DNA of 59,945 nt from Girardia tigrina (GCA_001938485.1 MQRK01245740.1:1-59945), one strand, 5' to 3'; shown: positions 1-46,054, numbered from the stretch's first letter. Notes: generated by a model not told the origin, from the sequence alone. Translations and numbers: made by a program.

Positions 1-686
1 AATTCTGCTGATTTAAGAAATGCCAAATTACAATCTTTATAATTAACTGAGTATAATAATACAGATTCTCCTGTTTGACAGCTTGTAGTTCGATAATTAC
101 AAAATGGATGAGACTGTAAATTCTCTGTAACATCATAAAAAATTCCATCAAATTCTCTCAATTCTGTTTGATATTCTTCTGATATCATAATTTTATCTAC
201 TATTTTATTTCCCAATTTTACAGATTCTCCTTTACATTCTCCATCCGGATCCATTACTCATTTTCGAAATACAGATTCTCTTGTAATATATCCAACTTTA
301 GCAGTTAAAGTTAAAATGGAATCAATTTTTAATTGTTTAGTTTGAAATGCTGCTTCACAATTTTCTGGTAAGATATCAACTGGTCTTGGTATAGCATCTA
401 TTTTAATAAGAGAAGAGTGACTCCATNNNNNNNNNNNNNNNNNNNNNNNNNNNNNNNNNNNNNNNNNNNNNNNNNNNNNNNNNNNNNNNNNNNNNNNNNN
501 NNNNNNNNNNNNATATAAAACATTTTTCTCTTCTTTAATTTGAAATGGATAAGCTTCAGCACATTCCACGACATCCATTAATGAATATATTTTTCCCACT
601 TCTGTTTGTGAACAATCATACGCTACTAAAGACATCGTAGGAGATACACATAAGAATAAAATCAATATTAATGATAACCACCACAT
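1..686 (-). pseudogene. Env-like glycoprotein (chuvirus-like, probable class III fusogen), N-terminal part, runs off window start
   Basis: Hydrophobic signal MWWLSLILILFLCVSPTMS followed by LVAYDC...IYSLMDVVEC, WSHSS and NCE. The frame continues past a TGA at 258-260 as VMDPDGECKG...FCNYRTTSCQTG. The Cys pattern matches my recollection of chuviral-type glycoproteins; not database-checked. Confidence 0.72.
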
Positions 687-926
687 TCTCGAATTATATT
701 TAGATTTTTTACTATCATCAATTTTGTTATCTTTCAAAGATTTATCTTTTATTACTTTATTTCGAAACTTTTTACTTCTTTTTGACACACTTTTACTTAT
801 TAAATTAACATTTATATCTACATCGGATATGTTTTGATACTGCAACATATTTTCTTCCTTTTTTATTTCAACTTTTTGTAAATCATCAGTAAATTCATTA
901 AAATCATTAGTATCGTAACATTCTTC

Positions 927-1637
927 AATATAATAAACTGTTATATTATTAATTTCTTTTTCCAAACATCCATAATCATATAAATAATTTTCATCTTGTA
1001 ATTCTAAATCCAAAAGAAATAAAAGTAATGTTCCTCCAATTTTAAACATTTCTTTGACTTTTTATCTTAACGCTTTTACTTTAATTGTCCAAATTTCAGC
1101 AGTATTGATTATACCTTTCCCTAGAACTTCTATTGCCAGAAATAATCTTTGAATATCCTTACTTTTTTGTCTACTATATTGTCCAAATTTTATCAAAATT
1201 TCTTGTATTTCTTTTTTAAATATCGTTTCTTGTTGCAATTTATATATTAATACCGATCTAAGATTATTTATTACAATATCATTAATGTTTAACGTTTCTA
1301 TTTCTTTAATTATATTCTTTAACTTTTCTTCATTAACTTCATTTTTAAATCGTAATGCCAAATCTTTAATATAATTTTCAGATATATTCATTTTATTATC
1401 ATTATTTTCTAACATTATAATATCAACAGTATTAATGTTACTTGGTAATATTCCATAATCCACTAAATAATCTTCTAATTATAATTCAAAACATTTAAAA
1501 TTCATAATAAATTTATCATTTCCAATCTTTTGCACCAGCATTTCCTTCAAATGTTTAACTTTTTTAAGATGATCAATTTGAATTACTGTAAATTCTTGTC
1601 CATTAAGAGTTATAAAAATCTGAAGATTATCTGTCAT
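927..1637 (-). pseudogene. Two ubiquitin-like (beta-grasp) domains in the same frame as env
   Basis: 1637-1413 reads LQIFITLNGQEFTVIQIDHLKKVKHLKEMLVQKIGNDKFIMNFKCFEL*LEDYLVDYGILPSNINTVDII. 1150-927 reads LFLAIEVLGKG..IKVKALR*KVKEMFKIGGTLLLFLLDLELQDENYLYDYG..ITVYY. Both resemble ubiquitin MQIFV..VKAKI..LEDGRTLSDYNI. In-frame TAA at 1479-1481 and 1062-1064. Confidence 0.6.
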
Positions 1638-1941
1638 AGGCATTTTCTAAATTGTTCTCCTAAAAATTTCAAAAATGTTTTTATTTCACGATTTATCGTT
1701 TTATTATCTTCTAAATAATTTTCTACCAACTTTATAAAATGTTCAGTTTGATCATTTTGTAAATTTAATTCAATAATTTCTTTAATATTTTTACGTATTT
1801 TACCATTTAAATCTTTATTCATTTCCATTTCATTTATTAATTTATTCATATATATTCTCGATTTATCTAATTTAACATCATCAATTTTATCAGAAACACT
1901 TTGAACTTTACTTTCAATTTTACTATTATTTTCATTTTGTT

Positions 1942-3291
1942 TCAATTTATTTTTATTTTTATCTTTCGATGTTGATAGCATCTGTACACTCGGATCAGTT
2001 TTATTAATTCTTCGATCAAATACATTCGATCAAATTTTGTTCTTAATTCATTAAAATCTGTTTTCATAGAATCATTGGAACCTTCATCCTCAGATGACAA
2101 GCAGTTTATATCAGATTGATTATCTTTGAATTTAATTTTCTTTTTCAAAATTGATGGTGATGGTATTTGCGTATTTGATCTACATGATCTGGCGACATGA
2201 CCATATTTTTTACATTTTTCGCACTGTATTTGACCTTCACTATTAAGTTTGGCTCTCTGTGGAGTAGGAGTTAAAGATCTGTTTCTAGTCATATCTGTTC
2301 TACATACATTTGCTAAATGACCTCTTTTTCCACATTTAAAGCATGTTTTAACAGGTGAATTTCGATTATTATTTGTATAATTTTTGAACCAACATTGACT
2401 ACTGACATGATCAATTTTGTTACAGTTATAACATTGAGGTTTTCTTGTATAATTATTTGACTCTCTAGTGTCGTTAAATCTCGTTGATCTTGAAAAATTC
2501 GGACTTCTCGAATAATTTGAGTTTTGATTATTATTATTTCTAACTCTAAAATATTGATTTTGTCTTGGATTTTCATTTTGTGGTCTGTATCTTTGCATTT
2601 TTGGAGATGTATGACTTTGAAAATCTTCGTCAGTATCACTGTTGTGTGAATATGACTTCTGTTTATGTCTTTCTATTTGTTTTAATTCAGTTACACATAC
2701 TGGTCGAATAGGAGCTACAGTAGTATTCATTTCTATTTTCATAGCCTTTTTTACCAGGTCATCATAATTTGTATAATCAACAAAACAAAGTGCTGTTCTT
2801 ATGTTATTTTGAACTCCAGCCCAGAACTGATCTTCAACTATCTTTTTAGTTTGTTCAGTCTAATTTCTCTTTTCTCCAAACGCTTTTTCCGCAAGTCTAG
2901 ATAAATAAAAAGCGAATTCACCAACTGATTTCTCCGCATTTTGAATTCGAGAATAAAACTTTTTCCGTATGATTCTACCAACATCGCCACTTATTAATTT
3001 TTCAGCCATTAAATCTTTCATATTTGCCCAAGTTTCAACTCCATTTCTATCNNNNNNNNNNNNNNNNNNNNNNNNNNCACCTTTTAAATATAACGGTAAT
3101 CTTTGAATCATTATTCTTTCGGCCCATCCATACGCTGTAGCAAACATAAAATATTCTGTCATAAAATCTACAAATTCAACGGGATCTCCTCCATACTGAT
3201 TTACAGGTAACTTTTGACAAATATCAAAATCTATATTATTTTCTCTATTTTCTGCCACCGTTTCTTTTTTAACTTTTCTACGATTTCTCAA
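1942..3291 (-). pseudogene. Retrotransposon Gag with three CCHC zinc knuckles
   Basis: ORFs 2860-3291 and 1942-2742 are one frame joined across a single TAG (2860-2862). Capsid-like YGGDPVEFVDF..LPLYLKG..TW..MKD..FYSRIQ..SVGEF; knuckles CYNCNKIDHVSSQC, CFKCGKRGHLANVC, CEKCKKYGHVARSC. Confidence 0.88.
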
Positions 3292-3683
3292 AGGATAATT
3301 AGACGTTTTGATACTTTTTTCGTAATTTCAATTATTAAAAATATACTCTTTTTTCGTTTCAAGAACAGAGGGCTCATCAAATATATTTATGTTGGGTATT
3401 ATTTAAAATTTATCTTTAATTCAATTATTCACTTTTTAAAATACAAATCTTAAATCTTTATCTTTAATCGTAAATCTCTATTCTTTATTCTTTAATCAAT
3501 AATCTTTAATCAATAATTCTTAATCAATAATCTTTAATCTGACTCCAATTAATCAGAAAGGACTTCCAACAAAAATATATGAATAATGAACACCAATTCT
3601 TTTACCAAACTTTATTTCAAATAACAAATTTCAACAAGTCACAAATAATAATAATAATTCAATTCTTGATGACAGAATACAAA

Positions 3684-4063
3684 TGTTAGAATTTATGGGA
3701 ACACCACTCGGAGAACAAATATCCATCACTAAATTATATTTATTAATCACACTTAATTATCGGATATTGAAAAATTGATTGATGGCGTTGATCTTCTGAT
3801 AATTCCAATTTCCACTCTGATTTTCAAATCCACCGAAAATTCTGCCAATTATTAAAACAATTTGTTTTTTTTATTTAATTTACATTTAACTTATATTTAA
3901 TAAATTTATTTAATTATTTCTTAAAAAAATTGAGGAACTAAATTACTAAAGATTTATTTTTTTTGTTAAACCGGTATTTTATAAAATTATATTTAATTAA
4001 CTAATTTAACTTAATTTCGATTTTCTATTTCAAAAATTTTCCGTTTACTATTAATTCCTAACA
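3684..4063 (-). repeat. 3' LTR of the gypsy element
   Basis: Near-identical to 9193-9576 (about 5 substitutions plus homopolymer length differences, counted by eye); TG...CA termini. Confidence 0.95.
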
Positions 4064-4078
4064 TTCCCCCCTTTCTTT
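4064..4078 (-). other. Polypurine tract
   Basis: Minus strand AAAGAAAGGGGGGAA immediately precedes the 3' LTR. Confidence 0.9.
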
Positions 4079-7000
4079 AAAATTTTTGATCTTCTCCACA
4101 TTTCGTACTATTTGTTTTTTATTTTCGTCCTCTAATCGATAACTTCTGTCGNNNNNNNNNNNNNNNNNNNNNNNNNNNNNNNNNTATTTGTCATCCGCTT
4201 TAGTCCTTATCTCCTTCTTCACCCATACTTTGTCTCCGATATTAAATGAGCGGCGTGTAGTTGTTTCCGTATATTCCTTTTTCTCCCATGACGGTGAATT
4301 ATTGTTGCTATATCATTTTTGTCTGTCAATCTTCCTTCCGAAAATTATCTTCGCCGGGCTTTTCCCCAATGTTTTCTGTCTTGTCGCGTTCAATGTAAAT
4401 TCCACCTCAGGTAACATGTCTACCCAACTCGTTTCGTTCCTTTCTTTGAGGCTCGCTTGAATATATTCCCTGATTGTACGGAATTGTCNNNNNNNNNNNN
4501 NNNNNNNNNNNNNNNNNNNNNNNNNNNNNNNNNNNNNNNNNNNNNNNNNNNNNNNNNNNNNNNNNNNNNNNNNNNNNNNNNNNNNNNNNNNNNNNNNNNN
4601 NNNNNNNNNNNNNNNNNNNNNNNNNNNNNNNNNNNNNNNNNNNNNNNNNNNNNNNNNNNNNNNNNNNNNNNNNNNNNNNNNNNNNNNNNNNNNNNNNNNN
4701 NNNNNNNNNNNNNNNNNNNNNNNNNNNNNNNNNNNNNNNNNNNNNNNNNNNNNNNNNNNNNNNNNNNNNNNNNNNNNNNNNNNNNNNNNNNNNNNNNNNN
4801 NNNNNNNNNNNNNNNNNNNNNNNNNNNNNNNNNNNNNNNNNNNNNNNNNNNNNNNNNNNNNNNNNNNNNNNNNNNNNNNNNNNNNNNNNNNNNNNNNNNN
4901 NNNNNNNNNNNNNNNNNNNNNNNNNNNNNNNNNNNNNNNNNNNNNNNNNNNNNNNNNNNNNNNNNNNNNNNNNNNNNNNNNNCTTGTCTTCGGTTTTTCT
5001 ACTTTTGCATCCTCATGTGTCATTTGACACTGTGCACAAGTTTCACATGTACTCCTCGATAACATGTCAGCATTTCCATGTAGTTTCCCTTTCCGGTAAA
5101 CAAGTTCTATATCTAGACTGCTCAGGTAATTTATCCACGTTTGGAACTGTGGGGTGATAGGTTTTTTCGTATTTACCATGAATGTGATGGCTTTATGATC
5201 CGTCCTTAATTTAAACCTTTTCCCATAGAGGTAATGATTAAAATGTTGGCAGAAATAATATACTGCCAATAACTCCTTCCTCGTGATACAATACCCTTTT
5301 TCATGGTCCCCCATGGAATGCGATCCATATGCTATTACTTGTTCTTTTCCCGTATCTCCCACTTGTGACAAGACTGCCCCGATACTGTCAAAGCTAGCAT
5401 CCGTGTCTAAAATGAATGGTTTCCGAAAATCAGGGAATTTTAGCACTGGTGTTGACATGAGTGCTTGTTTCAACTCATTGAAAGCTTGTTCACAGCCGTC
5501 TGTCCATATCAACTTATCCTTCTTCGCCCCGCATAATCCTTCCAGTATCTTGGCTTTCCTAGAATACCCGGAGATGAATTTCCTATAATAATTGCATATT
5601 CCTAAGAAACTCCTCAGCCTCTTCATACAATTTGGTCTCTGAAATTCATCGATAGCTTTTATTTTGTCTGGATCTGTGCTTATGCCATCTTTATTTACCA
5701 CATGTCCTAAAAACTTAACCTCTTCCCTCAAGAATTTGCATTTCGCCGGTTTTATTTTCAAACCTGCCTCTTTAATTTGTTGACAAACTCTGGTTAATAT
5801 GTCATAGTGTTCTTCCTCTGTCTTTGTGGCTATCAAGATATCATCTAGGTAGACGGAAGTTCCCTTATCAATCGGTGCCAGTACTTTCGTCATCAGCTCT
5901 TGAAATGTACCTGGTGCCGCAGCAATCCCAAACGGCATTCTTAGGAAGCAAAACTGACCGTTTTTCGTCGAAAAAGCTGTCTTATCCTGTTATTCCTTCT
6001 CCAACTCCACTTGATAATAAGCGTTCCCTAGGTCAATTATGCTGAAATATCGAGTTCTATGTAGTCTATCTATCAGCTCGTCCATATTGGGCATTGGAAA
6101 GGCTTGTCTCTCTGACACTTGGTTTAGTTGTCTAAAATCCATACAGATCCTGATCTAATCTGTATCTTTCTTCCATACGTACACAAGTGGCGTGTTCCAA
6201 GGTGAATTACAACGGCGAATAATTCCGTTTTCCTCTAAGTTCTTGATAGCCTCCTCTAATTTCCCTTGAAGATGTTCCGGTTGTCTCCGTGGTTTTATAT
6301 TTACTGGTTTGCACGTAGTTTTTATTTCATGCTTTATCAAACTGGTTTTACCTATGTCCCACTCGTTGGTCATGAATATATCCTTAAACTTCACCACTAA
6401 GCCTTCTTGTTTCTGTTTCCCAGATAAATCTAGATGTTTTCTCACCTCCTTTAATCGTTCTTCATCTGTAACTTTGCCTCCAAACTTAGCTTCCAGTTCA
6501 TACACGTGGTGTATCCTCTTGAATTCTTCTTTCTCTGTGTTTGATAACCACCTCAACCCTATCCCAAAACTCTGTTGCAACGGCACGCCTCCGATCATAT
6601 AGGGTTTTAAATTTTCCACTGCCACGAACTTAACTTTCCTTATACATTTACCTACTTTACATTCGACATCTACTTCTCCTACAACATTCATTGCTGACCC
6701 GTTTGCTGCCGTCAATTTCTGAGTAGTCCTATAGATTGTTGCTGACTTTAAAAGCCTTGCCCTCTCAGCTGCTATAACATTCATCGCCGCCTCCGTGTCC
6801 AACAAACATTCCAAACCTATTCCTTCTACTTCCACCGTTATGCTTGGTCTCCCTTGGAGTTTATTATACGAAATATCTTCGTGTACATCATATATTGACA
6901 TCATCTCTGGTGGTCCCCTATTACTCTCTTCTCCCAAGCATTTCATCCATCTGGCCGTCGTTTCAGCTAACCCTTCATATTCATAAATATTATTTCTCTT

Positions 7001-7124
7001 CTTTTTACTATTTGTCAACTCTCCTTTATCCTCGTCTATCTCATCTCCCCAAAATACATCTTCCTGAGTCTCTGTTCTCCTCCTGTTACAATTCGAAACT
7101 ACAATACCTTTACTCGACAATCTA
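4064..7124 (-). pseudogene. pol: Gypsy Pol (protease, RT, RNase H, integrase)
   Basis: Protease LLDTEAAMNVI; RT SPWNTP, MPFGIAAAPGTFQ, YLDD; RNase H LDTDAS..KELLAV..TDHKA..NADMLSR; integrase C-terminus SWVDMLPEVEF..SPAKIIFGR and FNIGDKVWVK. The integrase core lies in an N gap. In-frame stops at 6155, about 5990 and 4313. Confidence 0.93.
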
Positions 7125-8141
7125 CTGTTAAGTTTTATTTTATTATCATTATTATTATTATTAATCGAAAAAAATTACTACTTTTATAATTAATACTTTT
7201 ATAATTACTACTTTTATGATTACTAATATTATAATTATCACACATTATTTACATAAACCGGTTTAACATTAATAAAACTTACGCCATCGCCAAGATCGGT
7301 TCCTCTGCGACTTGGCGACTCTCGTTTTTTCTTTCGTACTCTCGATCTCTTTCTTCCTCANNNNNNNNNNNNNNNNNNNNNNNNNNNNNNNNNNNNNNNN
7401 NNNNNNNNNNTTAACTTTCCTTATACATTTACCTACTTTACATTCGACATCTACTTCTCCTACAACATTCATTGCTGACCCGTTTGCTGCCGTCAATTTC
7501 TGAGTAGTCCTATAGATTGTTGCTGACTTTAAAAGCCTTGCCCTCTCAGCTGCTATAACATTCATCGCCGCCTCCGTGTCCAACAAACATTCCAAACCTA
7601 TTCCTTCTACTTCCACCGTTATGCTTGGTCTCCCTTGGAGTTTATTATACGAAATATCTTCGTGTACATCATATATTGACATCATCTCTGGTGGTCCCCT
7701 ATTACTCTCTTCTCCCAAGCATTTCATCCATCTGGCCGTCGTTTCAGCTAACCCTTCATATTCATAAATATTATTTCTCTTCTTTTTACTATTTNNNNNN
7801 NNNNNNNNNNNNNNNNNNNNNNNNNNNNNNNNNNNNNNNNNNNNNNNNNNNNNNNNNNNNNNNNNNNNNNNNNNNNAAACTACAATACCTTTACTCGACA
7901 ATCTACTGTTAAGTTTTATTTTATTATCATTATTATTATTATTAATCGAAAAAAATTACTACTTTTATAATTAATACTTTTATAATTACTACTTTTATGA
8001 TTACTAATATTATAATTATCACACATTATTTACATAAACCGGTTTAACATTAATAAAACTTACGCCATCGCCAAGATCGGTTCCTCTGCGACTTGGCGAC
8101 TCTCGTTTTTTCTTTCGTACTCTCGATCTCTTTCTTCCTCA
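6630..8141. repeat. ~730 bp direct duplication (offset 781) around a 50-N gap; probable assembly overlap
   Basis: 6630-7360 matches 7411-8141 wherever bases are called; the copies are separated exactly by the N gap 7361-7410. Confidence 0.8.
7906..8063 (-). other. Putative spliceosomal intron between gag and pol (duplicate copy at 7125-7282)
   Basis: Minus strand ATG GC|GTAAGT...AAAACTTAACAG|T AGA TTG TCG AGT. 158 nt and very AT-rich relative to its flanks. Removal deletes the gag TAA and gives an in-frame LAMARLSSKGIVV fusion. Confidence 0.75.
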
Positions 8142-9192
8142 GCTGCCAATTGTCGGCCTCTCACAATCCCTGGGTAATAATCTTCCGATTCCCGGATCGA
8201 TCTCACATCCTCATCCGCTCAGTCCATTATTGCTACATGTCTCTTGTTAGTCTTTCCCCTGATGGAGTCACTCGAAGATTGGTTCGTTTTTCCACTCAGA
8301 TTCCCCAGTCTCGAATTTCTGTTCGAGTTGATCCACCATCTCGGTCTCTCCCCATCTCGTTCTAGGCTTCCACCCCTTGTCGTATCAAAATAGGTCTCGT
8401 GTCTCACTTTTGAAAAACAATCGTCCGCGTAGTGACCTGTTTTGTCACATCTTGTGCATCTGATCCGGCATTCCCGTCGTATATGACCTTTCCGGCCACA
8501 TCCGAAGCAGGTAACATCTCTCTGTTTCTGACATTGCATGCTGATATGACCCACTTCATGGCAGTTCCAGCAGGTCCGTTGTTCACCATATGTCAGTTTC
8601 TCCGAAAACTTTTTATCCTTTGGTTGGTGGTTCCATTTTGTAATATTGGCATATGATGCTTTCACCGCGTTGATCTGTTTCCGATCCGATTTGACTTCGT
8701 CCATTTTTTTAATGATTTGTTGAATGTCTTCTTTGCCTTTGATATCCCTCATCATAATCTCTTTCCGAGTCTCCTCGTCATTGTTGCAATTTAATAATAA
8801 ACATTTCTCGATTTCCTCGATAGTCCACTGAAAGGACATGATTTTCTCCGCCATTTTTCTGGTTTTCGCGAAAAACTCCGTCGTACTCTCTGTTGTCCTT
8901 TTGAATTCCACCGCTTCTCTTAGGACTTCAATTTGTGACTTCTTCACCTGGAGCGCTTCCCGTAGTCTGTTTTCGAAACCTTTTTCGGCAGGTCTCGTAT
9001 TTTCATACACTGCAATCAAATCTCGTGATAGTAGTGTCACTACCAGAGTTTCTTTCAGACTATCTGGGACTCCTGCTGCCTTGAAATATCGATTACAGTT
9101 CGAGATAAAAATTTCCAAATCATCATCTTTCTTCAAGTGTTCCGGAATCAGCCGCGAAATCAAGTGGTCCGAATTCGTGGCGAAGGCCGCCA
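8060..9192 (-). pseudogene. gag: Gypsy Gag with three CCHC knuckles
   Basis: Starts MAAFATNSDHL at the LTR junction. Knuckles CWNCHEVGHISMQC, CFGCGRKGHIRREC, CTRCDKTGHYADDC. Premature TGA at 8219, after which the frame stays open to TAA at 8060-8062. Confidence 0.88.
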
Positions 9193-9576
9193 TGTTAGAA
9201 TTTGTGAGAACACCACTCGGAGAACAAATATCCATCACTAAATTATATTTATTAATCACACTTAATTATTGGATATTGAAAAATTGATTGATGGCGTTGA
9301 TCTTCTGATAATTCCAATTTCCACTCTGATTTTCAAATCCCCCGAAAATTCTGCCAATTATTAAAACAATTTGTTTTTTTTTTATTTAATTTACATTTAA
9401 CTTATATTTAATAAATTTATTTAATTATTTCTTAAAAAAAATTGAGGAACTAAATTACTAAAGATTTATTTTTTTTTGTTAAACCGGTATTTTATAAAAT
9501 TATATTTAATTAACTAATTTAACTTAATTTCGATTGTCTATTTCAAAAATTTTCCGTTTACTATTAATTCCTAACA
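9193..9576 (-). repeat. 5' LTR of the gypsy element, followed by PBS-like TGGCGGCCTTCGCCA
   Basis: Direct repeat of 3684-4063; TGG directly follows the CA end on the minus strand. Confidence 0.95.
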
Positions 9577-10864
9577 ACAAACACAATCAATATTTCGTGC
9601 GAGTTAACAGATTACAGTAAAACTGTGAATCTCCAAAGTCGAACGATGATTTGATTAGAAACTCAAAGATTTTAAAACAAACCTTCTTCTCCCATACGGG
9701 GTACTTATGGTTTGTAAGATTAATATTTTAATAAAATAAAANNNNNNNNNNNNNNNNNNNNNNNNNNNNNNNNNNNNNNNNNNNNNNNNNNNNNNNNNNN
9801 NNNNNNNNNNNNNNNNNNNNNNNNNNNNNNCTGTTGTTTATATAGTAATTTTCCTCAGCCTTGAAAATTGATGAGATAAAACAAAGAGTAAAATATTTAT
9901 AATTTTTGATGAAGTAAAACAAACATTTATAATTTTTAATTCCAACTAAATATTATTTTGTTTGAAATTAATAATTTTACTAAAAGAATTATTTAAAAAT
10001 TTTCCTTTATAAAATTTTATCAAAAGTGTTCAAATGTATTTTCTAAAACCCTAACACATTCTCGTAGACAGGTACAAGTTCATGAGAAAGCAATCCAATT
10101 ATCAAATAATAATATGAAATAATTATGTATAAATATATATATGTTATTTTCTTCAATTTTGTATAAATCTTATTTTGTTTCTGTTTTATTAATTTTTTTA
10201 CAATGTTTATAAATTTAGATCTTTAGAAATATTTTAATGTACATATCCTCTAAAAAATTCAATTCCTAAATAACTTTCTTTAATTTTAAATCATTCCATT
10301 TTAAATTATTTTTTTAATAAAACTTTCCTTGAACAATAAAGATTATAATTTTATTTTAAATAATGTTACAAAATATATCAAAATCTTCTTTACAATATTC
10401 TTTAACTTCGAAGATGATATTTTAATTGTGAATTTTTAAAACTTAATTTTTACAAAACTTTGTCTCAATTTAATTAAAATATTATTACTACTCTAAAATT
10501 TTTACAAAACTTATTTCATTTTAATTAGTAATATACTATCTGTGAAATATAATTTTTACAAAAATTATTTCAATTTAATTGGTAGAAATGTTACCTATAA
10601 AATATATTTTTTATAAAATCTTATTTATTTTAATTAGTAAAAAATATTATCTATAAACTTAAATTTTTTTATTTAAAAGATTATTTCATTTTAATTAGTC
10701 GAACATTATTTTTAATTTATCTAAAATATAAATATGTTTTTAACTTGAAAATATCAAAAATTTAAAGTTCACCAAAAGGAACCCTAGCAATGATGATAAA
10801 GATCTTCGATTAAGAAGCATAATACCTTCTAAATAAACTATAATTTATAAAGTATTCACAAATA

Positions 10865-12448: not shown

Positions 12449-12476
12449 ATCCCTATGATATATATATATATATATT

Positions 12477-15400
12477 TCTTTTTCCTAAAAATAAATCATT
12501 TAAAATAAGTTCATTGTTGGGCAACCAAGATCCTAGTGGCCCAACAATGAAAGTATCTAAAGTAACCTTCCATGAATCCCCATAAGCAGATTGAATTTGT
12601 TCCCTAAGATCCCAATATTTATTAATGTTTTTCCTATCAGCGTTAAAAATATTTTTTTCAGTTTCAAACGGACATTTAACATCATTTAAAAAAATTTTAC
12701 GCTTTTCCCTGAAACAAATTTGAAGATCCACTCTCTGGGCAGAGTGAATGAAGACACATTCTTCATTAACATTCACTTCTGCATCAGTGAATGTTGCCAG
12801 TTCCTTGGCTATGATATCCTGGATAGAGTTGTGTCTGGCATTCCAGAAGCTACTCATTGAGTTACAACCCACTAACATGTGAGCCAAGGTTTCTTCTTCC
12901 GGGCATCCCCTTCTACACGTTATACTTGTTACCGCACCAGGTCTACATCGTACAGGTACAGTGTAGGACCGGGCTTGATGGATAAATCTCCATTCACTCT
13001 GCCCAAGGAGATTACTATATATAGGGGAAGTGGAGAGGGGGGATTTTGATAGACGTTCAGAGTACCGACCAGCACTACTCTGTTCATCCCATTCGATTAC
13101 CCACGAATACCAAATACATTGTCTAAGAGTTTCTGATATTTTATCCTTATCTTTGAGTCTGAAAATTTCATTAGTAATATATTTATGATTATCATTTTGG
13201 ATATGTTGCTTTATAGTTAAAATTACTCCTGGGTTTGAATATTTAAAGTTTACAATGATTTTATGATATTTAAAAAGATAATGTATAGCATGCTGTGTTT
13301 TGTTCCACCAAGAAGTATTAACATGGGCTCTGAAGCCATCATTTAACCAATCAAAGACCTAGGAGTGTGATACGTTCATGTCTCCTAACGGACTACGGAG
13401 GGTGGCGTCATTGGCAGCAATAATATTGGGGTCAGTGGAGTTGAGAAGGTAGAAAGAATGAGTGATGGACTGGACATAGTACTCATCTTTAAGGGAGGTG
13501 ATACCAACTCCACCAAATGCTTTGGGACAATAAAGATAGGGGGTGGAAGCATTATCCTGAAGATCAAGGATCTTTTTGTGGAACGAGCGCAGTTGGATGT
13601 CCCAAGCACAGCTTGCCAGTTCAAAAATATAAAAAGGGATGAAGGTATTGCGAAAATAGAAGATGAATTTGGAGTGCTCGAAAAACTTATACGCATGGAG
13701 TTTTTGGTTGGCAGAAAGGGAGGAGGAGTAAATGATCTCAGCTTCGCGGATGACCTCATCAAAAAGCTGTTGGGGGGTATAGGTGATGAGAAGGGTTACA
13801 AAACAACCCAAATAGAGGTACCCTTCCTTCGTGCTAAGATGGGGGATGTTCACACCATCTATGATATACTTGTCTTTTTTGACAAAGGGGATATCGAGCA
13901 CTGCACACTTGGATGCACGAAATGACATTCCCAGGTTTTTGACGGCACAAGACGCAATGTCAATGACATTTTGGAGCTCAGTTTTATTTGCAGCTAGGAA
14001 GACCAAATCATCAGCATATGCCATACATGATATTTTCCTACTACCTAAAAGAATTCCACCACATCTATATAAGTCTATTTCAATTAAAATTGGATTAATT
14101 CCTATATTAAATAGCAACATCGAGAGGGGACATCCCTGCCGAACTCCTATGTTAACAGCTAAAGGTTTGGTGGATTCTTGTGCACACACAATAGTTGTAG
14201 TGCAATTATTATAAAACTCTTTAATTAAATTTGTTGAATTACATTCAACATTCATCTTATTCATTAATTCCAGTATATAGCTAACTGAGATTGTGTCAAA
14301 CGCAGCAGCCATATCCATAAAGGAGATTTTAAGTTGTTTTTTAAGATAACTCCGATAATCATCAATAATTGAGCGGAGTAAGAAAGTATGATCAGCACAA
14401 CCAGCATTTGGCCCTAAGCTTTTTTGGAGGGGGTGGAGAAAGTCATGCTGTCGGATCCATCCAATTAGTTGTTTACACAGGAGAGTAGTTAATAATTTTT
14501 AGATACATTCCTGGAGGGCAATACCTCTCCAGGAGGAGGGGAGGTGATATTCACCATCCTTATTAGGTTTAGGGATCATTAAGGTTAAATAGTTTTTCCA
14601 GTTTTTGGGGGTGAGACCCTTATCAAAAATTATTTTAAAAAGATTATTTAAGAGGATACCTGACGGATCACAATAAAGAATATCTTTATATGTAATACCA
14701 CTATTACCTGGAGAGGAAGTGTCTTTGGATTTAAGACATGCCACAATCTCATCTGGAGTGGGGACATGAAATTCAAAGGCACTTCCCATTTTGTAGGTGT
14801 CAGGTTTAATTTCAATAATTAGGGGGGCAGTCGCAGCATTTTTATTGTGAAACTCAGTGAAACACTCTGGAGAGGGATGAGTATCTGAACTAGTGTCAGG
14901 TAAAACATGTTTCAAAGCTGCCTTAGGGTTTTTCATGAAAAGTTGTTGTAGTTGCGGTCCCTTTAATTTATTTTCAGTCGTCTTATTTCCCATATAGGGT
15001 GTTCGTGGTGTAATGTTTCTTAATATATAAATATGATCTACAAAATCATTGTAGAATTTTTCAATATTATTTTATTCAGTAGAATTTAGCACATTCTGAG
15101 CTGAAGCAATACGAGATGATTTTATATTAGTTGATGTTTTAGTATTTGGTCTTATCTTATTGGGGGGGTAGTTAGTCGCAACGAGCCGCCTAGCATGAAG
15201 TCGAATAATTTTAAGATTTTGTTGCTTAGCTTTTGATGGGTCAATAGTATACCTCATAAACCCACAAATTAGGGGACCACTATCAGCAAATTTATTGGAA
15301 ATTTGAAAATTTGGGAAGTCTGTATTAACACGAAACTTATCAGGCAGTAGGAGTATGTTGGAAATAAACTGATTGATAGAGTTGATTTCATTTTGATAAC

Positions 15401-18135
15401 AACTCATATCTAAACTACCTACTGGATCATATACAGAAATTGTGTTAATATTAATGTTGGTCATTATTAAAATCCATCTATATTGTCGAAAATAAACTGG
15501 ATAGAAAATGATTTTACAAGATGCAATATCTTGAAGGCAAAAATATCTCAGAACATACTCCTTGTTTTGGCTAAAATAGCTCGTGTTAAAATTGTGGGGA
15601 AAACAAAGTGTTTAGAATTAGAAATATATTTAGTACAATAGGCATCTACATAATTATGATCAAAGGACAGGAATCCAATGAAATGTTCGTTTTGTTCATC
15701 TCCATAACCTATAGAGTCACTATGCTTATTGGGGGAGATGGACAAAATGATTTTACGAATTTGAAAGACTGAGATACGAGGTACAGCATTGGGGGAACAA
15801 AGCCGCACCATATAATGACAAATTAAGGGCCCGCAATCTGCAGGGTTAACTTGGAGTGGAAAGTCAAACATACAAAGAGTTGGGCTTTCCATTCCAAACA
15901 TTTTATCAAAAAAGAGTAGTTTATTAAAAAAAAGATTACAAATAATTTTGGCGCTATGAGAAAAAGGGGATTTACTACCTAAGGGATCAATCCAAAAGGA
16001 TTGATATTATTAAAATCAACTACTAGAAAAATCCAGTGATGATCCTCAATGTTGAGGGGATAATGATTTTATTGGTGTGGGCGAGGTTAGCGCTATTGAT
16101 AACACTTTCAGGGGATCCGAAATCTAGTAGGGCAAATTCAGAGGCAACTTCTGTAGGGATATATAGGATACTGCTATTATTGGCAAAATAGTTAAAAAAG
16201 TTATCAATGTCGCTACCTGCTAATGGAGTATGGAGGAGGTCGGCTGGTAATTCGGGAAGGGAGTTGGCTAAATTAATTAACTTATAAATAGGCGAACTAC
16301 TATCTAGTCAATCAGATGTGGACTCTGATTCAAGCTTCTGAATAACTTCTGTTACAATATATTTCCTTAAACTGGCACACAATTTTCTATTCTTATAGGT
16401 CGTAACCTTAGGAAGGGAGTATGTCTTACAGAACATACAGAGGAGGATATTTAGGATATCTTCCGGACCACTAGGAAAGGAATTTTTCTTAATAGTGGCA
16501 ACAACTGCTTCAACAAGTTGGGTATTATATCTAGGAATCGGGATTTTGCCTATAATACATTCGATGATATTATTGACTTGGGTTTCAGTGATGGATAAAT
16601 TGATATTACTTATGTCTTGATTACTTTGGGAAAGGCTACCATTGACTGAGCTATTAGTAGTTTGGTGGGATTCGGATGGGGGTAGGGGAGTTCTAATGGG
16701 ACTTTGGGTGAAATTATTGGTGGGAGAGAGATCTGAGCTATTGGTTGCTTGGGGGGATTCAAATGGGGATAGGGGTGAACAAATAGGGTCCTGAGTGGAG
16801 TTATTGGTGGGGAAGAGATCTTCTTGGGACATGGGGACTTGTGGAAAGGGAGCAGGGGTTTGGATCCTAGGGGTGGAACAAGGGGGGACAAAGGATGAGG
16901 ATGGGGAGGTAGGAATTCTAGAGAAGGAATTATTGGTAGGTGCGGCTGATGGAGGTTCTTCTTCAATAATGATAGTAGTATGAGGGGATGGACAAGCAAA
17001 TGGGTTTTGGGAATTAGGGGAGCAACCAGGTATAATTTGGTAAACTGAGGTAGTAGATGCTGGAGAGTTGAAGGGGACACTAGGTTACCTATGGGTTGGG
17101 CAGTGTTGGGAATAGTCATATTTAACAATTGGGGTCTGGGAGGATCATCACTAGAGTGGCAGAAGGATTGATGATTAACATTAATATTTGGTATATGAAC
17201 AAGGGTTAATGGGGGGGTTTTATCATCATAATGGGTGATGAATATATCATCACTAGATTGGCAGAAGGATTGATAGTTAATATCCGGTACATGAATTGGT
17301 GTTAGGGGGGGTTTCCTCTTCATATTGGGTGATAATAACATCATCAATATCAATATTATCAGTATTATTTTGAGTATTAGTTTGTGGAATATTATTTTGA
17401 GTATTAATTAGTGGGAGTAATTTTTCTAATGAATCAGGATGACTTACTATCTTAAGAAAATTAATACATTTATCTTTGGGTTAGATATGTTCAGAGATTA
17501 AAAGGAAGTGATTTAGCTGTGAAGAAGTAATTTTTAATTCACTAATCTTATCTATGGAGTTTAGAAGGTCAAGATTAATAGGGGGATTATTTATTAGAGG
17601 GAATTCAATTTTAGAAATTATGGATAAGAATAAAGATGGGATTAACAGGTGAGGGAAGTTAGAATTAGAAAGTGGGCATTTGGAGAAAATAGAAAAAAAG
17701 TTGAAAAATTGGGAAATGGTAAAGTTAGGTTTCTTAATAATTATTTTAGACAGTTTATAGGAAGACCAGAATAGAGAGACTTGCTCAGGATCAAGACTAT
17801 TGAGGTCAATAGGGGAGATATCTGGTTTAGAGTACCAAGAGGCAAGAAGGGAAGAAAAGAGAGTGTTAGGTTTAGGAGGGGGGGAAAGAAGAGGAAAGAG
17901 CAGAAGTCATATCAGAGAAGAAATGACAGCATTTAAGACAGTTCTTAGCTTTTTCCCCATAGCATTCATGAAAAGAGCAGAGTGATATATTTTTGTGGAA
18001 CTGGGATTTTAGGGAGAATAATGTTATCCTTTTTATAACTTTCTATATTAAAGTCACGGAGGGTTGTGTATAATTTATCAAATTCACTATAGGGGATTTT
18101 ACTATTTTTATTTGGGAAATTCCATACAGTAATAA
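12477..18135 (-). mobile_element. NeSL/R5-like non-LTR retrotransposon (Ulp1 protease, RT, CCHC, restriction-like endonuclease), degenerate
   Basis: RT GVRQGCPLSMLLFNI and AYADDLV. WRFIHQAR..CRRGC..ETLAHMLVGC..ARHNSIQ..RVDL..NDVKCPFE..NKY is an RLE C-terminus. Ulp1 motifs IEDHHWIFL and QVNPADCG lie upstream. Stops at 14499 and 13359 plus frameshifts; the 3' end abuts (TA)n; the 5' limit is approximate. Confidence 0.85.
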
Positions 18136-18137
18136 AC

Positions 18138-19790
18138 TGTCGAACTAGGTTTTTTTGATGACGACTAAGAAACTCTCGTTTCCGCCACAATTTCACTCTA
18201 CACGCTATCGATGCACATTTCAAAGTATCAATACATGCTTCATCTCATATTGAATCAATAATCTCCGATTCGCATTAAATGATACACGTTATTGTAGTGC
18301 ATATTCTTTTAGAAAAATCAATCATTTCGATCACAAACCGCTTTTCTCAGACCTTCCCGAGTGTAATATATCATCTAAACACCCATCGTGGCTATGATCC
18401 TCAATATAAATGCTGCCTAGCAACATACATGCATTACATCATGTTTTGCGAAAGTAAGTTATTACTTACATTGATATATTCTGATATCAACCTTCTGTAT
18501 TTTAAATAACGATTCTCTTTTGCCAATGTGTTCTAATTTATTATTTCATTATGCTGACTGAGAATATCCACAACAAATGTCTTTAGTAATAGGTTTTATA
18601 AGTTTCTTTTATAATACTACTCACAAATTTATCAGTAATCATTTTTAATTAAAACTAATATTTTTTTAAAATATTTTATTGTGAGATTATCGTAATATAT
18701 TAAATGGGAATATTAATCCATGAACTTTTTAAAATATTTTACCAATAAGTAATAATAACTTTCAAGCATTTTAAAAGTTTTGAATGAAAGTTGATTATAA
18801 AATGTTATAATATGTCAAAGAAGTTACGGAATGTTAAATTTCTACCACCAGTGTTTACCACAATGTTCTGAGTTTTAATCACAGAATGTAGTTAAAGGCC
18901 TAAATAAGAAAGAGAAAATACTTTTAAATAAAGCCGAGGAAAATAGGTTCGAAAAAATAGTAAATCAAAAAAAATTTTTGATATCCATTTTTTATGAGGA
19001 CAGAATTCTAATTGGCCAACAGAATTTTTTGTTATCTTTTGTAGAAAGAAAAAATACTATTACATCTTTAAACAATTTTTATGTGATTCAAATCTTTTGT
19101 AGATGGGAAAATTTCATACTCTATATTAACAACATCAATATGAGTTTTACAACATTTATTAATATCACAAGCGCATTCACTATTTGACATTTTTCTTGAT
19201 CGATATATTTCTAACTTGAATAGATTATCTCGACTTTGAACCTTTTAACTGTATCTTTGAACAAAGCTGATTCAAATGTTTTTCCTCTATCAACATGAAT
19301 ATCTTTTGGAGGTCCAAATTTCCATATCCATCTGTCCAATATACGAACAGTTTTTTCATCTTGACTAGCAACTGCAACGTATTGATATCCGTTTATGTTT
19401 CTTTTGAATGGTCCACAGAAATCCATGTATATTTTCTGGATTGGTTCATCTGCCGACAACTTTATATGTTTTTCTTTCGTTTTCGCTGTTAATGTCTTTC
19501 TTTTTTGACAATATAAACAACTTAGGACTATTAGTAGATAGAAAATATGACCTTTCCCAAAGCACCCGAGATTTTGGCCATTTTCTTGGGTTCTGTGCTA
19601 TAATTCTTGGGTTTTGTGTTATTTTTTCACTATTTTTACTAGTTTTAATGTTTTTTAGCAATTCTTTCATAATTTTTCATACAAAAACAGCCCAAAATCG
19701 ATTATATTATTTTGTTGTGAAAATTAAAAATGTCATAAAAAATAATATTTTTTATACTGTTTTTTAGCCCTTTTTTAATCATTTTTTATA
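18138..19790. repeat. Left arm of a ~1.6 kb inverted duplication
   Basis: Reverse complement of about 24708-26445. Mirror-image ORFs appear in the track (19211-19459/25041-25289; 19408-19767/24733-25092). A few substitutions and indels separate the arms. Confidence 0.93.
19211..19459 (-). pseudogene. Gypsy integrase core fragment (copy at 25041-25289, +)
   Basis: KIYMDFCGPF...WIWKFGPPKDIHVDRGKTFES; internally deleted. Confidence 0.85.
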
Positions 19791-20134
19791 CAAAAACAGC
19801 CTAAAATCGAATATATTTTTATCATGCAAAATATTTAGAAACATTTTGTTATTTAAATTGGAAATAAAAAGATTAAAAATATATTCATATTAACCACTAA
19901 CAATTGAAATATATACAGTTTATAAAAATATATTACTTATTATAACTTATATCATAATATCTTGCACGTTCATTCATGACCATTTATCCAATATTCATGA
20001 CTAAGGAATTAGCTTGATATTGATAAGATTTTAATTTTTATTTAAAAGAAAGTGTAGAAAAATGAAGATCGTTTCTGACATTTAACATAATTTAGCAAAA
20101 TATTTGAATTATATTCTCATTTTTTTATTTTTAG

Positions 20135-23588: not shown

Positions 23589-24013
23589 TGTAAGGATGAT
23601 TTGTAAATTATGATTGTGTTTAATTTAATTCGTGTAACTTTGGTATGATGTTCGGATATGTTTATGACTCTCTCATTGTATATATTAATTGTATTTTTAT
23701 TTAATGTATATTTTATAATAAACGTGTGTTGTTTAAATATTTCAAATTTATTGGAAAAAGAAGCGCCAAATTTGAAATTAAGAAAAGTGTGGATTGAAAA
23801 TAAATTTTTAGTAATGAAAACTCTTTTTGATTTCGGATTTAATTATAAAACCGGAAAAGAAAATAAATGCCAATTTTCGACAATTAACAACTCCATCAGC
23901 AAATTTGGAATAAAATTTTAGACAATTTTTTTGAAGCTTTTCAATTTTTTTTTCTTTTTAGACATATTTGAATAAAACTTAAGAAGGAAACTATAGATTC
24001 AAGTGATATATGG

Positions 24014-24694
24014 TTGTTTAGAGATAGTCCAATAGATGAAGACAGACTAAAGAGAATTAAAGAAATATATAACACCAAAGTTGACAAACAACTAATGAGG
24101 CTATTAACAGAATATAAATCAATATTCATCGCTGACAAGTGGGATATTGGGAAAACTTCCTTAACGAAACACAAAATAGAAACTCGTGGAGAACCAGTCT
24201 TAGTGAAGCCTTATCGACTACCACAACATTTTGAAGAGAAACTAAATGATATCATTAGAAATTTTAAAGAAAACGGTATAATTGAAAAGTGTAGTTCTCC
24301 ATGGATCTTCCCTCTGGTGTGTGTATGGAAAAAAGAGAAACAAGACATCCGAGTATGTGTCGATTTTCGACAGTTGAATAAAATTACGGTAAGACCGGCA
24401 TTTCCAATGCCAAATGTAGATGACATGTTAAACACGTTGAATCGAGCAAAACATTTTAGAACAATCGCTCTGGGAAATTCATATTATCAGGTTGAATTAG
24501 AAGAAGAATCAAAGATTAAAACTGCGTTTTCAACAAAGAATGGTCAATATTGTTTTAAAAGAATGCCTTTTCGAATTGCAGTGGCTCCAGCTACCTTTCA
24601 AGAATTAATGGTGAAAGTTCTAGAAGATTTGAATTGGAAAGAAGCAGTCGCATATTTGGATGATATTTTGATTTTTGCAAAAGATAGAAAATAA
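24014..24694 (+). pseudogene. Gypsy RT fragment, related to the 3684-9576 family
   Basis: WDIGKTSL.KHKI..SSPWIFPLVCVWKK..VDFRQLN..MPFRIAVAPATFQ..YLDD; truncated at the inverted-repeat arm. Confidence 0.9.
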
Positions 24695-24707
24695 TATCTT
24701 CTGTTTA

Positions 24708-26445
24708 TGTATAAAAAATGATTAAAAAAGGGCTAAAAAACAGTATAAAAAATATTATTTTTTATGACATCTTTAATTTTCACAACAAAATAATATAATC
24801 GATTTTGGGCTGTTTTTGTATGAAAAATTATGAAAGAATTGCTAAAAAACATTAAAACTAGTAAAAATAGTGAAAAAATAACACAAAACCCAAGAATTAT
24901 AGCACAGAACCCAAGAAAATGGCCAAAATCTCGGGTGCTTTGGGAAAGGTCATATTTTCTATCTACTAATAGTCCTAAGTTGTTTATATTGTCAAAAAAG
25001 AAAGACATTAACAGCGAAAACGAAAGAAAAACATATAAAGTTGTCGGCAGATGAACCAATCCAGAAAATATACATGGATTTCTGTGGACCATTCAAAAGA
25101 AACATAAACGGATATCAATACGTTGCAGTTGCTAGTCAAGATGAAAAAACTGTTCGTATATTGGACAGATGGATATGGAAATTTGGACCTCCAAAAGATA
25201 TTCATGTTGATAGAGGAAAAACATTTGAATCAGCTTTGTTCAAAGATACAGTTAAAAGGTTCAAAGTCGAGATAATCTATTCAAGTTAGAAATATATCGA
25301 TCAAGAAAAATGTCAAATAGTGAATGCGCTTGTGATATTAATAAATGTTGTAAAACTCATATTGATGTTGTTAATATAGAGTATGAAATTTTCCCATCTA
25401 CAAAAGATTTGAATCACATAAAAATTGTTTAAAGATGTAATAGTATTTTTTCTTTCTACAAAAGATAACAAAAAATTCTGTTGGCCAATTAGAATTCTGT
25501 CCTCATAAAAAATGGATATCAAAAATTTTTTTTGATTTACTATTTTTTCGAACCTATTTTCCTCGGCTTTATTTAAAAGTATTTTCTCTTTCTTATTTAG
25601 GCCTTTAACTACATTCTGTGATTAAAACTCAGAACATTGTGGTAAACACTGGTGGTAGAAATTTAACATTCCGTAACTTCTTTGACATATTATAACATTT
25701 TATAATCAACTTTCATTCAAAACTTTTAAAATGCTTGAAAGTTATTATTACTTATTGGTAAAATATTTTAAAAAGTTCATGGATTAATATTCCCATTTAA
25801 TATATTACGATAATCTCACAATAAAATATTTTAAAAAAATATTAGTTTTAATTAAAAATGATTACTGATAAATTTGTGAGTAGTATTATAAAAGAAACTT
25901 ATAAAACCTATTACTAAAGACATTTGTTGTGGATATTCTCAGTCAGCATAATGAAATAATAAATTAGAACACATTGGCAAAAGAGAATCGTTATTTAAAA
26001 TACAGAAGGTTGATATCAGAATATATCAATGTAAGTAATAACTTACTTTCGCAAAACATGATGTAATGCATGTATGTTGCTAGGCAGCATTTATATTGAG
26101 GATCATAGCCACGATGGGTGTTTAGATGAGAACATGTTTCTCGATATTACATTCGGGAAGGTCTGAGAAAAGCGGTTTGTGATCGAAATGATTGATTCTT
26201 CTAAAAGAATATGCACTACAATAACGTGTATCATATAATGCGAATCGGAGATTATTGATTCAATATGAGATGAAGCATGTATTGATACTTTGAAATGTGC
26301 ATCGATAGCGTGTAGAGTGAAATTGTGGCGGAAACGAAAGTTTCTTACTCAATTCAGACTATACTGATCCTCAACTCGTTTTTTACTTTAACCGCCTTAC
26401 CCCATTGAACGGGCATTAGTCGTCATCATAAAACCTAGTACGACA
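24708..26445. repeat. Right arm of the ~1.6 kb inverted duplication
   Basis: Reverse complement of 18138-19790. Its part from 25974 recurs, extending to 26480, at 41574-42080. Confidence 0.93.
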
Positions 26446-32469: not shown

Positions 32470-34093
32470 TTGGAGGATGTTAAAAGTCTGGAAATCGATT
32501 TCGACCATTTTGATCTGATGCTCAAATATTGTTTGAAGTTGATTGAGAAAGGATTGGCGTACGCTGATAACACAGACCCAGAGCAAATGAAACGTGAACG
32601 AGAAACGAAAACTGAATAGAAATGCCGTAATCAGAGTGTAGAAGAAAATCAAAGATTGTGGGAAGAAATGAAATCCGGTATGGACCTTGGATTGATCTAT
32701 TGCGTGAGAATCAAGATTGATATGAATTCAAATAATGGTTGCATGAGAGACCCAACGATTTATCGCTGCAAGAAAGAGCATCATATCATGACCGGAGATA
32801 AATATAAGGTCTATCCGACATATGATTTCGCGTGTCCAATTGTAGACAGTATTGAAGGAGTGACACACACTCTCCGGACGAGCGAATATAATGACAGGAA
32901 TGAACAATTTAATCAAATTCTTGATTTATTGGAGCTGAGAAAACCAATGATTTCTGATTACTCGCGATTTTCTCTACAGAATACTGCGTTATCAAAACGA
33001 AAGTTGGCGTACATTGTAAATGAAGGTCTCGTCGACGGATGGGATGATCCGAGAATTCCGACTGTTCGAGGAATTCTTCGACACGGTATGACTATTGCCG
33101 GGCTGAAGGAATTTGTGTTGGCTCAAGGATTTGGTCGTGCGAATGTGGTGATGGAATGGGATAAAATTTGGGCTTTTAATAAAAAAGTAATTGATCCAAT
33201 TGCACCTCGATATACTGGATTGGTTGGATTGGATGAGTCTCTAGTATTAGTTAGAGTAGCGGGCCAGGTATGAATTGAGAAAGGATCGGTTGCTAAACAT
33301 CCGAAGAATGAGAGTGTAGGTCAGAAATTGATTTGGTTCACTCCAACAGTACTGGTAGAAAGATCTGATGCGGTAGATTTTGTGGAGAACACAAATGTAA
33401 CATTTCTCAACTGGGGTAATATTCTCATAACAAAAATCAATCGAAATAACACCAATAACATCGTTTCCATCGATGCAAAACTCAATTTATCAGACCGAGA
33501 CTTTAAAAAGACGCAGAAAGTTACTTGGATGCCATTAGGACCTGGTGATGATTTACGATCATTCTCTATCCCAATAAACGCTATTTTCTTTGACCATATT
33601 ATCACGAAGAATGTGTTAGGAAAAAATGACGACTTCAAAGATTTCTTTTAATAAGGATTCGAAACGAGAAGAAGCTCTAATTGGAGATATTGAATTAGGA
33701 GACCTAAAGAAGGGAGATATCATTCAATTGCAACAAAGATGTTACTTTATTGTAGACGAAGAATACCGACAGAAAGGCAAAGCAACAGGCCGAGAGTATC
33801 ACCTCGTATTGATCAATATTCCCAAGGGAAATAGCAAGGAGAGACTTACTACTGGCAGTAAAGCGAATAATAAAACAAAGGCTGAAAAAGCAAATGGTGA
33901 TTCAGTAAAAAAACAAAGCGAGAAAAAGAAAGTAGTTGAAAAAAAATGGGAGAAGAATATCGAAGAAAAAGGAAATCATAAAAAGGAATCAAGGAAATGA
34001 AATAATAGAAAAACCAATTCCAAATGCAAAAAACGTTGATTCATCAATGAAAAAAGGACCAGGCTCGGTTTGGAAGTAAAGAAAGAAGACAAC
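32470..34093 (+). pseudogene. EPRS: Bifunctional glutamyl-prolyl-tRNA synthetase fragment
   Basis: [53 protein letters not shown] and KGDIIQLQ, then a K-rich linker and the ProRS start TRLGLEVKKEDN. Stops at 32617 and 33271; frameshift near 33645. Confidence 0.92.
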
Positions 34094-36675: not shown

Positions 36676-37126
36676 ATAATAACGGCACACCTAAATACAT
36701 TTAGTGCCTTTTTTCAATATAATTTTTATTTTCTAAAATACAATTGTTTATTTTTGAAATACATTTTTAATTTGTAGAAAAACAATAATTATCATGCAAT
36801 TATTACGAATTTAAAATACAATTGTCATTAGTTGAAAGAGATATTTTTAATTTAAAATGAATTTCTTATTCTTCTAAATACATGTTAATTTAATTTTTAT
36901 AATTAAAAAACTGTCATTTATTTTTAATTTATTTTAAATTTTAACAATAATTGAAGTAACGTTTATATATTAATTGAAATAATAATAATTATTATCAATT
37001 TAGTTATTTTAAAATAAATATTAAAAATTTTTAATAACTTTAAATTTAAATGGTCAATGGCCGCAGTTGGGTACGTCGGATCTCGTTTGATCTCCAAAGC
37101 TAAGCAACCAACCTATTCATATTATA

Positions 37127-44988: not shown

Positions 44989-46054
44989 CTAATAAATCTT
45001 TTTATACACATTTATATAATTTGATGATTTAACCTCTTTCTTCATTTCTTCAAAACTCACTGTAGTTATTCTTTGATCGTTGGTCTTATACCATTGATCT
45101 TTGTATTTAACAAAGCTGTAATAATGTCCACGTGAAATAGTTCCTCCGACATGATTTACAACTCCGATCAACTCATAACCGGAAATATTCACATTATCAT
45201 CATTTCCATATAATAACTCAAATTTGTCGTCTATTTTCATTTCTTCATTAAGCTTATTAATAGCTAATGAGATCGGATTTCTAACAAATCTTTTTATACA
45301 CACGATCAAATATTTAGGACTATTTGAAAATATTTCGCAATTTCTGCCTCTCCCATTTATCGAATTACAACTCGGACATTTNNNNNNNNNNNNNNNNNNN
45401 NNNNNNNNNNNNNNNNNNNNNNNNNNNNNNNNNNNNNNNNNNNNNNNNNNNNNNNNNNNNNNNNNNNNNNNNNNNNNNNNNNNNNNNNNNNNNNNNNNNN
45501 NNNNNNNNNNNNNNNNNNNNNNNNNNNNNNNNNNNNNNNNNNNNNNNNNNNNNNNNNNNNNNNNNNNNNNNNNNNNNNNNNNNNNNNNNNNNNNNNNNNN
45601 NNNNNNNNNNNNNNNNNNNNNNNNNNNNNNNNNNNNNNNNNNNNNNNNNNNNNNNNNNNNNNNNNNNNNNNNNNNNNNNNNNNNNNNNNNNNNNNNNNNN
45701 NNNNNNNNNNNNNNNNNNNNNNNNNNNNNNNNNNGGAATAGGCTTGCTTGCTTTAATAATCGAAGTGTTTTCTTGAACGGAATTCATCAACAGAGTTTGA
45801 ATCGATTCGTCCATGTACCAATCATTATTATTATTATTTACTATTTTACTTGATGAAGTTCTATTAGTAATCGAAACCTGTTCTTTAAAAGACTTGATCA
45901 TCATTTCTTGAATGACACTGTCCATATACCAATCCGTATTATCATTTATCAGAGGAACTATCTGAGGTTTTGTAATCGTTGAAGTTTGTCGTTTAATAAA
46001 GTTGTTATCATTTCTCAAAGTAGCAGTTTTAAATGTCATATTTCTTCGAACCAT
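44989..46054 (-). CDS. USP deubiquitinase, copy 2 (middle lies in an N gap)
   Basis: N- and C-terminal parts are nearly identical to 29335-30564; no stops in the called bases. Confidence 0.85.

Follow-up and report, generated by a model that had tools for sequence, protein, structure and literature searches.

We analysed a window of 59,945 nucleotides from Girardia tigrina (GCA_001938485.1 MQRK01245740.1:1-59945), a whole contig in a 1.43-Gb genome whose base 1 is the contig end and lies inside an env gene. On the minus strand, 2859-1945 encodes three CCHC knuckles (Pfam PF00098, E 2e-12, three stretches), and a hydrophobic signal-like stretch starting at 686 leads into a Cys-patterned protein with a weak match to PF24664 (Monjiviricetes fusion; E 4e-4, below the curated cut-off). 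The gag with three knuckles, signal-like stretch and Cys-patterned glycoprotein of the preliminary description are therefore real on this strand, as are the frame changes that it placed near 1980 and 1640. The frame was also said to end in the glycoprotein; the glycoprotein is present, but the frame has no end there and runs off base 1. Because the window is the whole contig and ends inside env, env is cut off and nothing adjacent is readable. The gag-env path carries four in-frame stops (2862, 1481, 1064 and 260) and two N gaps (3052-3077 and 427-512), and in the stretches scanned, no hydrophobic peak other than the predicted Env signal lies upstream of the Env anchors. Pfam matched no PR, RT or IN in the gag-to-env interval of the window, in line with the earlier claim that no protease, RT or integrase lies between the two genes. 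The features are summarized in Table 1.

Table 1 Features of the gag-env element and of the element nested in its 5' LTR.
Feature	Position	Strand	Remarks
5' LTR, distal part	9577..10056	-	starts TGTTAG, has N gap; 88% identity to positions 1-238 and 333-495 of the 790-bp family LTR
Unrelated nested Ty3/gypsy element	3683..9576	-	inside 5' LTR; gag, PR, RT, RNase H, partial IN (Pfam)
5' LTR, proximal part	3390..3682	-	ends CCCAACA; 89% identity to LTR positions 491-790
Likely tRNA-Trp primer-binding site	3370..3379	-	10 nt past LTR; one mismatch in window copy
Gag N-terminal/capsid-like region	2440..3291	-	stop 2862, N gap; third-position bias; no Pfam match, capsid label by position only
Nucleocapsid, three CCHC knuckles	2175..2439	-	PF00098
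Charged, probably coiled-coil linker	1635..2174	-	both window frameshifts inside or at its end
Ubiquitin-like domain 1	1390..1634	-	stop 1481; no C-terminal Gly-Gly
Ubiquitin-like domain 2	915..1160	-	stop 1064; from alignment to domain 1 and sister family
Predicted internal signal sequence of Env	630..686	-	aligns with PF24664 start
gB-type (Monjiviricetes-like) Env ectodomain, N-terminal third	1..629	-	stop 260, N gap, cut at contig end

The LTRs of the nested element (9576-9192 and 4063-3683) are 97.7% identical, and the element is flanked by a 5-bp target duplication, TTTGT. The pol at 4058-7174 was rejected as the pol of the gag-env family, as it is part of the nested element and shares 35-39% identity with the family pol. 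Also in the nested element, 6630-7360 and 7411-8141 form a 781-bp tandem duplication (100% identical, N gaps at the borders), which is probably an assembly artefact. Other sequences were noted elsewhere in the window. A broken non-LTR retroelement on the minus strand (12453-17407), which we take to be NeSL-like, has an RT (PF00078) with a Ulp1-type peptidase (PF02902) upstream. Three copies of a ubiquitin-specific protease ORF (PF00443; 29323-30564, plus strand; 44989-46101, minus strand; 59619-59945) are 95-99% identical and are probably carried by a mobile element. A perfect inverted repeat of 1,429 nt (18371-19799 and 24701-26129) surrounds an RT fragment (23972-24694), a Foldback-like element at 37115-39039 has inverted arrays of a 15-bp unit at each end, and 32620-33273 (plus strand) is a Glu/Gln tRNA synthetase exon (PF00749).

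A genome search gave 86 matches on the 40 scored of 5,139 candidates, and the main stretches of these copies shared 89-96% identity with the window. The order of the parts was read using 31 short landmarks, each taken from single copies, and 36 contigs carried landmarks. From gag to Env, the order was gag, charged linker, two ubiquitin-like domains, signal, Env, two hydrophobic segments and tail; the Env tail was followed by PR, RT, RNase H, IN, a second signal-like stretch, FN3-like repeats, an anchor and a short tail. Env lay upstream of pol in all 10 of the landmark-bearing contigs that hold both. The suggested gag-env(-pol) order was borne out, and the ordinary gag-pol-env order, by which the window copy would be just a pol deletion, was looked for and not seen in these 10 contigs. 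Nor is pol missing from the family: it lies after env in other copies, and its absence between gag and env is therefore uninformative on autonomy. PF24664 matched the equivalent region of other copies at E 2e-35 to 3e-79, confirming the chuvirus-like fusogen family that had been proposed. A direct PDB sequence search with Env returned no fusogen.

The family is Ty3/gypsy (Metaviridae) with a gag-env-pol order. By E value, its RT was nearest to Ty3 (E 3e-67; next class, E 9e-41), and the pol seen in other copies, which is absent from the window, has the PR-RT-RNase H-IN order of Ty3/gypsy. Peptidase_A17 and DUF1758/1759 are signatures of BEL/Pao pol, and no Pfam match to these was found in family copies. 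The parallel with BEL/Pao elements drawn in the preliminary description was not upheld by the RT and Pfam results.

The family LTRs are approximately 790 bp (TG...CA) and occur as two subtypes side by side, and a purine run precedes the 3' LTR. One two-LTR copy is 16.1 kb long with an LTR identity of 98.2%, and a 4-bp target duplication was detected in 4/5 two-LTR copies, the fifth being unresolved. In copy G000:C206124, the LTRs are only 70% identical, yet the 4-bp duplication matches on both flanks. The 10-nt primer site, ten bases past the 5' LTR, is complementary to the 3' end of two tRNA-Trp genes of the host genome, which were found with a pattern designed from the primer site itself (reversed control, 0); the site is also present after the 5' LTR of other copies. 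In the 3' region, a separate ORF matched the DEDD exonuclease family (PF00929, E 7e-9). A sister family (at least 150 matches), whose Env is 61-80% identical, is laid out in the same way and likewise has the second signal, FN3 region and exonuclease. An exonuclease ORF at L013 4085-4945 (minus strand) is just 48% identical to the family exonuclease, hinting at a third related family.

The coding parts of the family likely all lie in one frame of about 3,200 codons, corresponding to a summed landmark spacing of about 9.6 kb. The commonest spacing was a multiple of three at 30/30 landmark intervals, and each of the 30 was stop-free in at least one copy. Single copies were stop-free over 654 codons from the linker into Env, 833 codons from the Env signal into PR and 1,256 codons from RT to the last anchor. 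The Env tail was in frame with PR in 8/11 copies and IN with the second signal in 12/14; the weak intervals were RT to RNase H (3/8), RNase H to IN (5/11) and FN2 to FN3 (8/15). We infer the single polyprotein from these junction counts, because every copy examined carries breaks and none is open along its whole length. In the assembly examined, the family appears decayed. Two unnamed database proteins (P0003 and P0004), whose Env is 34-36% identical, have a PF24664 Env and an aspartyl protease in one frame. In these proteins, two or three aspartyl-protease-like domains follow the gB-type Env, and that ORF has no RT.

Programmed frameshifts at 1980 and 1640 were rejected, as other copies are in frame at these points in 10/14 and 11/14 cases. 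The four stops of the window (in the order given above) recur in 1/17, 1/25, 0/24 and 0/24 other copies. The frameshifts and stops of the window are mostly private decay. Mismatch rates at codon positions 1/2/3 were 0.040/0.038/0.092 in the UBL linker and 0.054/0.037/0.109 in the FN3-anchor region; all coding parts had a third-position excess, and two non-coding controls were flat. Pairwise dN/dS within the family was 0.08-0.32, the pairs sharing ancestry and reference and not being independent counts.

Ubiquitin-like domain 1 matched PF00240 at E 1e-3 in a family copy and at E 1.5e-6, above the cut-off, in a sister-family copy. Searching PDB with a profile built from nine UBL stretches gave 44 sequences at E values up to 1, of which 43 are ubiquitin-fold by name, with the UBL of UHRF1 at the top (E 3e-4). 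Domain 2 alone had no Pfam match; it is 28% identical to domain 1 and 45% identical to the sister-family domain. Cleavage of a ubiquitin fusion by host deubiquitinases was rejected, as the aligned UBLs do not end in Gly-Gly. Database searches with the linker and with the FN3 region returned no related proteins within the lengths searched, and structure models of the two were of low confidence (AlphaFold pLDDT 42 and 41, respectively).

The FN3-like repeats after IN, together with the anchor, form a predicted second surface protein, and the FN3-like assignment itself is of moderate strength. The region has three repeats with a common Leu...Tyr...Tyr pattern, exceeds the Pfam fn3 threshold in a single copy (E 2.5e-7) and scores 0.92 to FN3 clusters in the Atlas; single repeats fall below the Pfam cut-off. 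PDB profile matches of the region covered 16 chains at E 0.05-0.9, 12 of which we take to be FN3-bearing. One profile of the region had no FN3 match, and Foldseek with the low-confidence model returned nothing at E 0.001. A captured fragment of a host receptor, acting on the host cell as a decoy, in superinfection block or in adhesion and having no part in virion attachment, is an alternative that we hold as appreciable although short of even. The nearest look-alikes are indeed cell-surface FN3 proteins, and the Pol-less lineage described below has spread without encoding this protein. However, Pol-less copies could obtain it in trans together with Pol, and the protein shares the frame of Env and is kept in two families, between which the region is 40-44% identical. 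In the topology proposed below, the FN3-anchor protein is a candidate attachment protein.

Three copies leave the Pol-bearing layout at one common point after PR. A query across this Pol-less junction was spanned by 40/40 scored contigs, as was the ordinary PR-to-RT junction (40/40). Two other deletions were spanned by 1/40 scored contigs each and are private; a complementary env-less replicating lineage was sought at both of these junctions and not found. Exact 20-nt junction motifs matched 136 times for the Pol-less and 148 times for the Pol-bearing form (controls, 0), both counts being inflated by redundant contigs and tandem repeats; the Pol-less form is about as numerous as the Pol-bearing form. 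RT, RNase H, IN and FN3 landmarks were absent past the Pol-less junction in 20/20 fetched loci, and upstream of it env landmarks were found in 16 and gag landmarks in 6 of these loci. What remains in the Pol-less form is the LTRs, primer site, gag, UBLs, env and PR; everything from RT through FN3 is gone. As expected of a non-autonomous LTR derivative, numerous independent insertions share this deletion while retaining cis signals. A 4-bp duplication flanks one Pol-less copy, which carries both LTRs and the primer site and was therefore likely integrated by integrase in trans. Pol-less copies likely borrow both RT and integrase. In the sister family, one Pol-less candidate was seen, interrupted inside PR.

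The Pol-less copies may be ordinary parasites in which the constraint on gag and env is only apparent, coming from recombination with autonomous copies, and we give this reading a little under an even chance. Pol-bearing and Pol-less copies interleave on the gag and linker trees, and the constraint of the Pol-less copies may therefore be inherited by recombination. Among Pol-less copies, private variants are spread almost evenly over the three codon positions, and the remnant tail, with shared variants of 17/27/30 at positions 1/2/3, has no third-position excess. However, variants common among Pol-less copies are third-position-rich both in gag (9/7/27) and in env (44/36/97). The junction is in frame, leads to the terminal stop of the family and is open in 15/29 copies, and the last anchor has lost its 54-nt core, in frame, in 28/28 Pol-less copies, which also argues against ordinary parasitism.

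If all its genes share one frame, the element must have a means of producing more Gag than Pol. This would be provided if Pol-less copies arose by reverse transcription of spliced RNAs from the full element, such RNAs being its normal source of surplus Gag and Env; on the protease side, the last bases shared by the two forms are followed by a GT. However, the junction is a patchwork of about 50 nt with no plain AG resumption in 17 Pol-bearing tails, the 54-nt anchor deletion has no GT-AG ends, and the Pol-less remnant is 68-79% identical to the Pol-bearing tail. Such a splicing origin is highly improbable.

The preliminary description had suggested a non-autonomous or bipartite element. A gag-env-protease lineage does exist in the genome, but the window copy is weakly placed with Pol-bearing copies in the trees. 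We consider it fairly likely that the window copy is of the Pol-bearing type. Its side of the linker tree holds six Pol-bearing copies and one Pol-less copy, its side of the gag tree holds one and none, respectively, and, judged by linker-region identity, its two nearest labelled copies are both Pol-bearing. Membership in the Pol-less lineage (gag-UBL-env-PR only) is unlikely, though the two forms are about equally common and one Pol-less copy does stand on the window's side of the linker tree. The labels are interleaved, clustering no better than in shuffles, and the tree split had an SH-aLRT of 94 and was not starred.

Most probably, the window contains what is left, after decay and truncation at the contig end, of the 5' half of a multi-copy gag-env-pol Ty3/gypsy element. 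The active form of this element likely made one membrane-threaded polyprotein, and its Pol-less offshoot likely moved with borrowed RT and integrase. In the topology that we propose, the internal signal ahead of Env would send Env into the ER, while Gag, the coil and the two UBLs would stay cytosolic, perhaps anchored through what is left of the signal. A single Env anchor would then bring the polyprotein back to the cytosolic side, and there PR would release RT-RNase H, IN and itself. The second signal, after IN, would export the three FN3-like repeats, which would be held by the C-terminal anchor. Signal peptidase would cut at the two internal signals, and the products would be Gag, a class III fusogen, PR, RT, IN and the FN3 membrane protein. 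Particles could thus bear two surface proteins, the class III fusogen and the candidate attachment protein. Two hydrophobic segments lie near the Env end, and the topology would require just one of them to span the membrane, as in the membrane-proximal region of herpes gB. The loss of the second signal, FN3 and anchor core from the Pol-less form fits this topology and would be expected if an anchor without its signal were useless or harmful. In a more speculative version, which we regard as distinctly improbable, the element would resemble a flavivirus polyprotein with two surface proteins delimited by ER signals, a gB-type fusogen and a receptor-binding FN3 partner, Pol-bearing copies supplying RT, IN and the attachment protein and Pol-less copies, in equal numbers, supplying the Gag, Env and protease surplus that is beyond a one-frame genome, so that the two forms together would approach a bipartite retrovirus.

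The main text of Chary and Hayashi (2026, PMC13524379) reports a gag-env-pol order with gB-type Env in nematodes, bryozoans and flatworms, including six Schmidtea elements. As described there, Smed_errantivirus_1-6 resemble the present family in having a Ty3/gypsy pol, an HSV/gB-type env, the gag-env-pol order and many copies. The printed Env fragment of Smed_errantivirus_2 is equal to the family Env at 46/64 positions by eye, and the Smed regions are 14.5-18 kb, compared with 16.1 kb for the two-LTR copy. The tRNA type of the six elements is given as 'none', whereas the family has a tRNA-Trp site, and the family lacks the intact ORFs in near-identical copies of the errantiviruses described. 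The main text mentions neither ubiquitin, fibronectin/FN3, polyprotein, in-frame, exonuclease nor non-autonomous forms; this is a comparison by description, and the Smed elements may share these features. BEL/Pao elements with a chuvirus-like glycoprotein (Dezordi et al. 2020, via PMC13524379) have the same broad class of fusogen but belong to another superfamily, the family pol being Ty3/gypsy.

Burro/GYPSM1, a giant planarian gypsy element, is described as having an in-frame env between gag and pol and a Ubi2/SUMO-like domain upstream (Arkhipova and Yushenova 2019, PMC6431247). According to that description, it shares with the family an in-frame env resembling mononegavirus glycoproteins, three CCHC knuckles, a Ubi/SUMO-like domain before env and accessory ORFs. 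However, Burro is >30 kb with an ORF of ~4,900-5,100 aa, whereas the family has ~16 kb, 0.8-kb LTRs and ~3,200 codons, and the MATH, BIR, BCL2 and ankyrin domains of Burro had no Pfam match in family copies. Neither an FN3-anchor protein nor a Pol-less lineage appears in the Burro description. The rotifer elements Juno and Vesta (Rodriguez et al. 2017, PMC5408684) are reported to have a DEDDy exonuclease ORF3, like the DEDD ORF after the family pol, but there the exonuclease mostly replaces env, whereas here it accompanies env. The lack of a stop codon separating gag from pol is likewise described for Cer1 (PMC10309623). The gene order by which the window first attracted attention is already known. 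The FN3-anchor protein and the Pol-less lineage are unmatched in the literature searched, where we found no account of either in such elements; Sacco et al. 2022, Repbase reports and the figures and sequences of PMC13524379 may describe them.

The Discussion of PMC13524379 treats entry by gB-type errantiviruses as unexplained, herpes gB needing partner glycoproteins. A concrete candidate for such a partner of the gB-type Env is the predicted FN3 membrane protein, which is conserved, coding-constrained and in frame with Env. How a gag-env-pol genome in a single frame can produce surplus Gag is a further question. The Pol-less lineage, present at about 1:1 and retaining just gag, env and protease, suggests an answer that can be tested.
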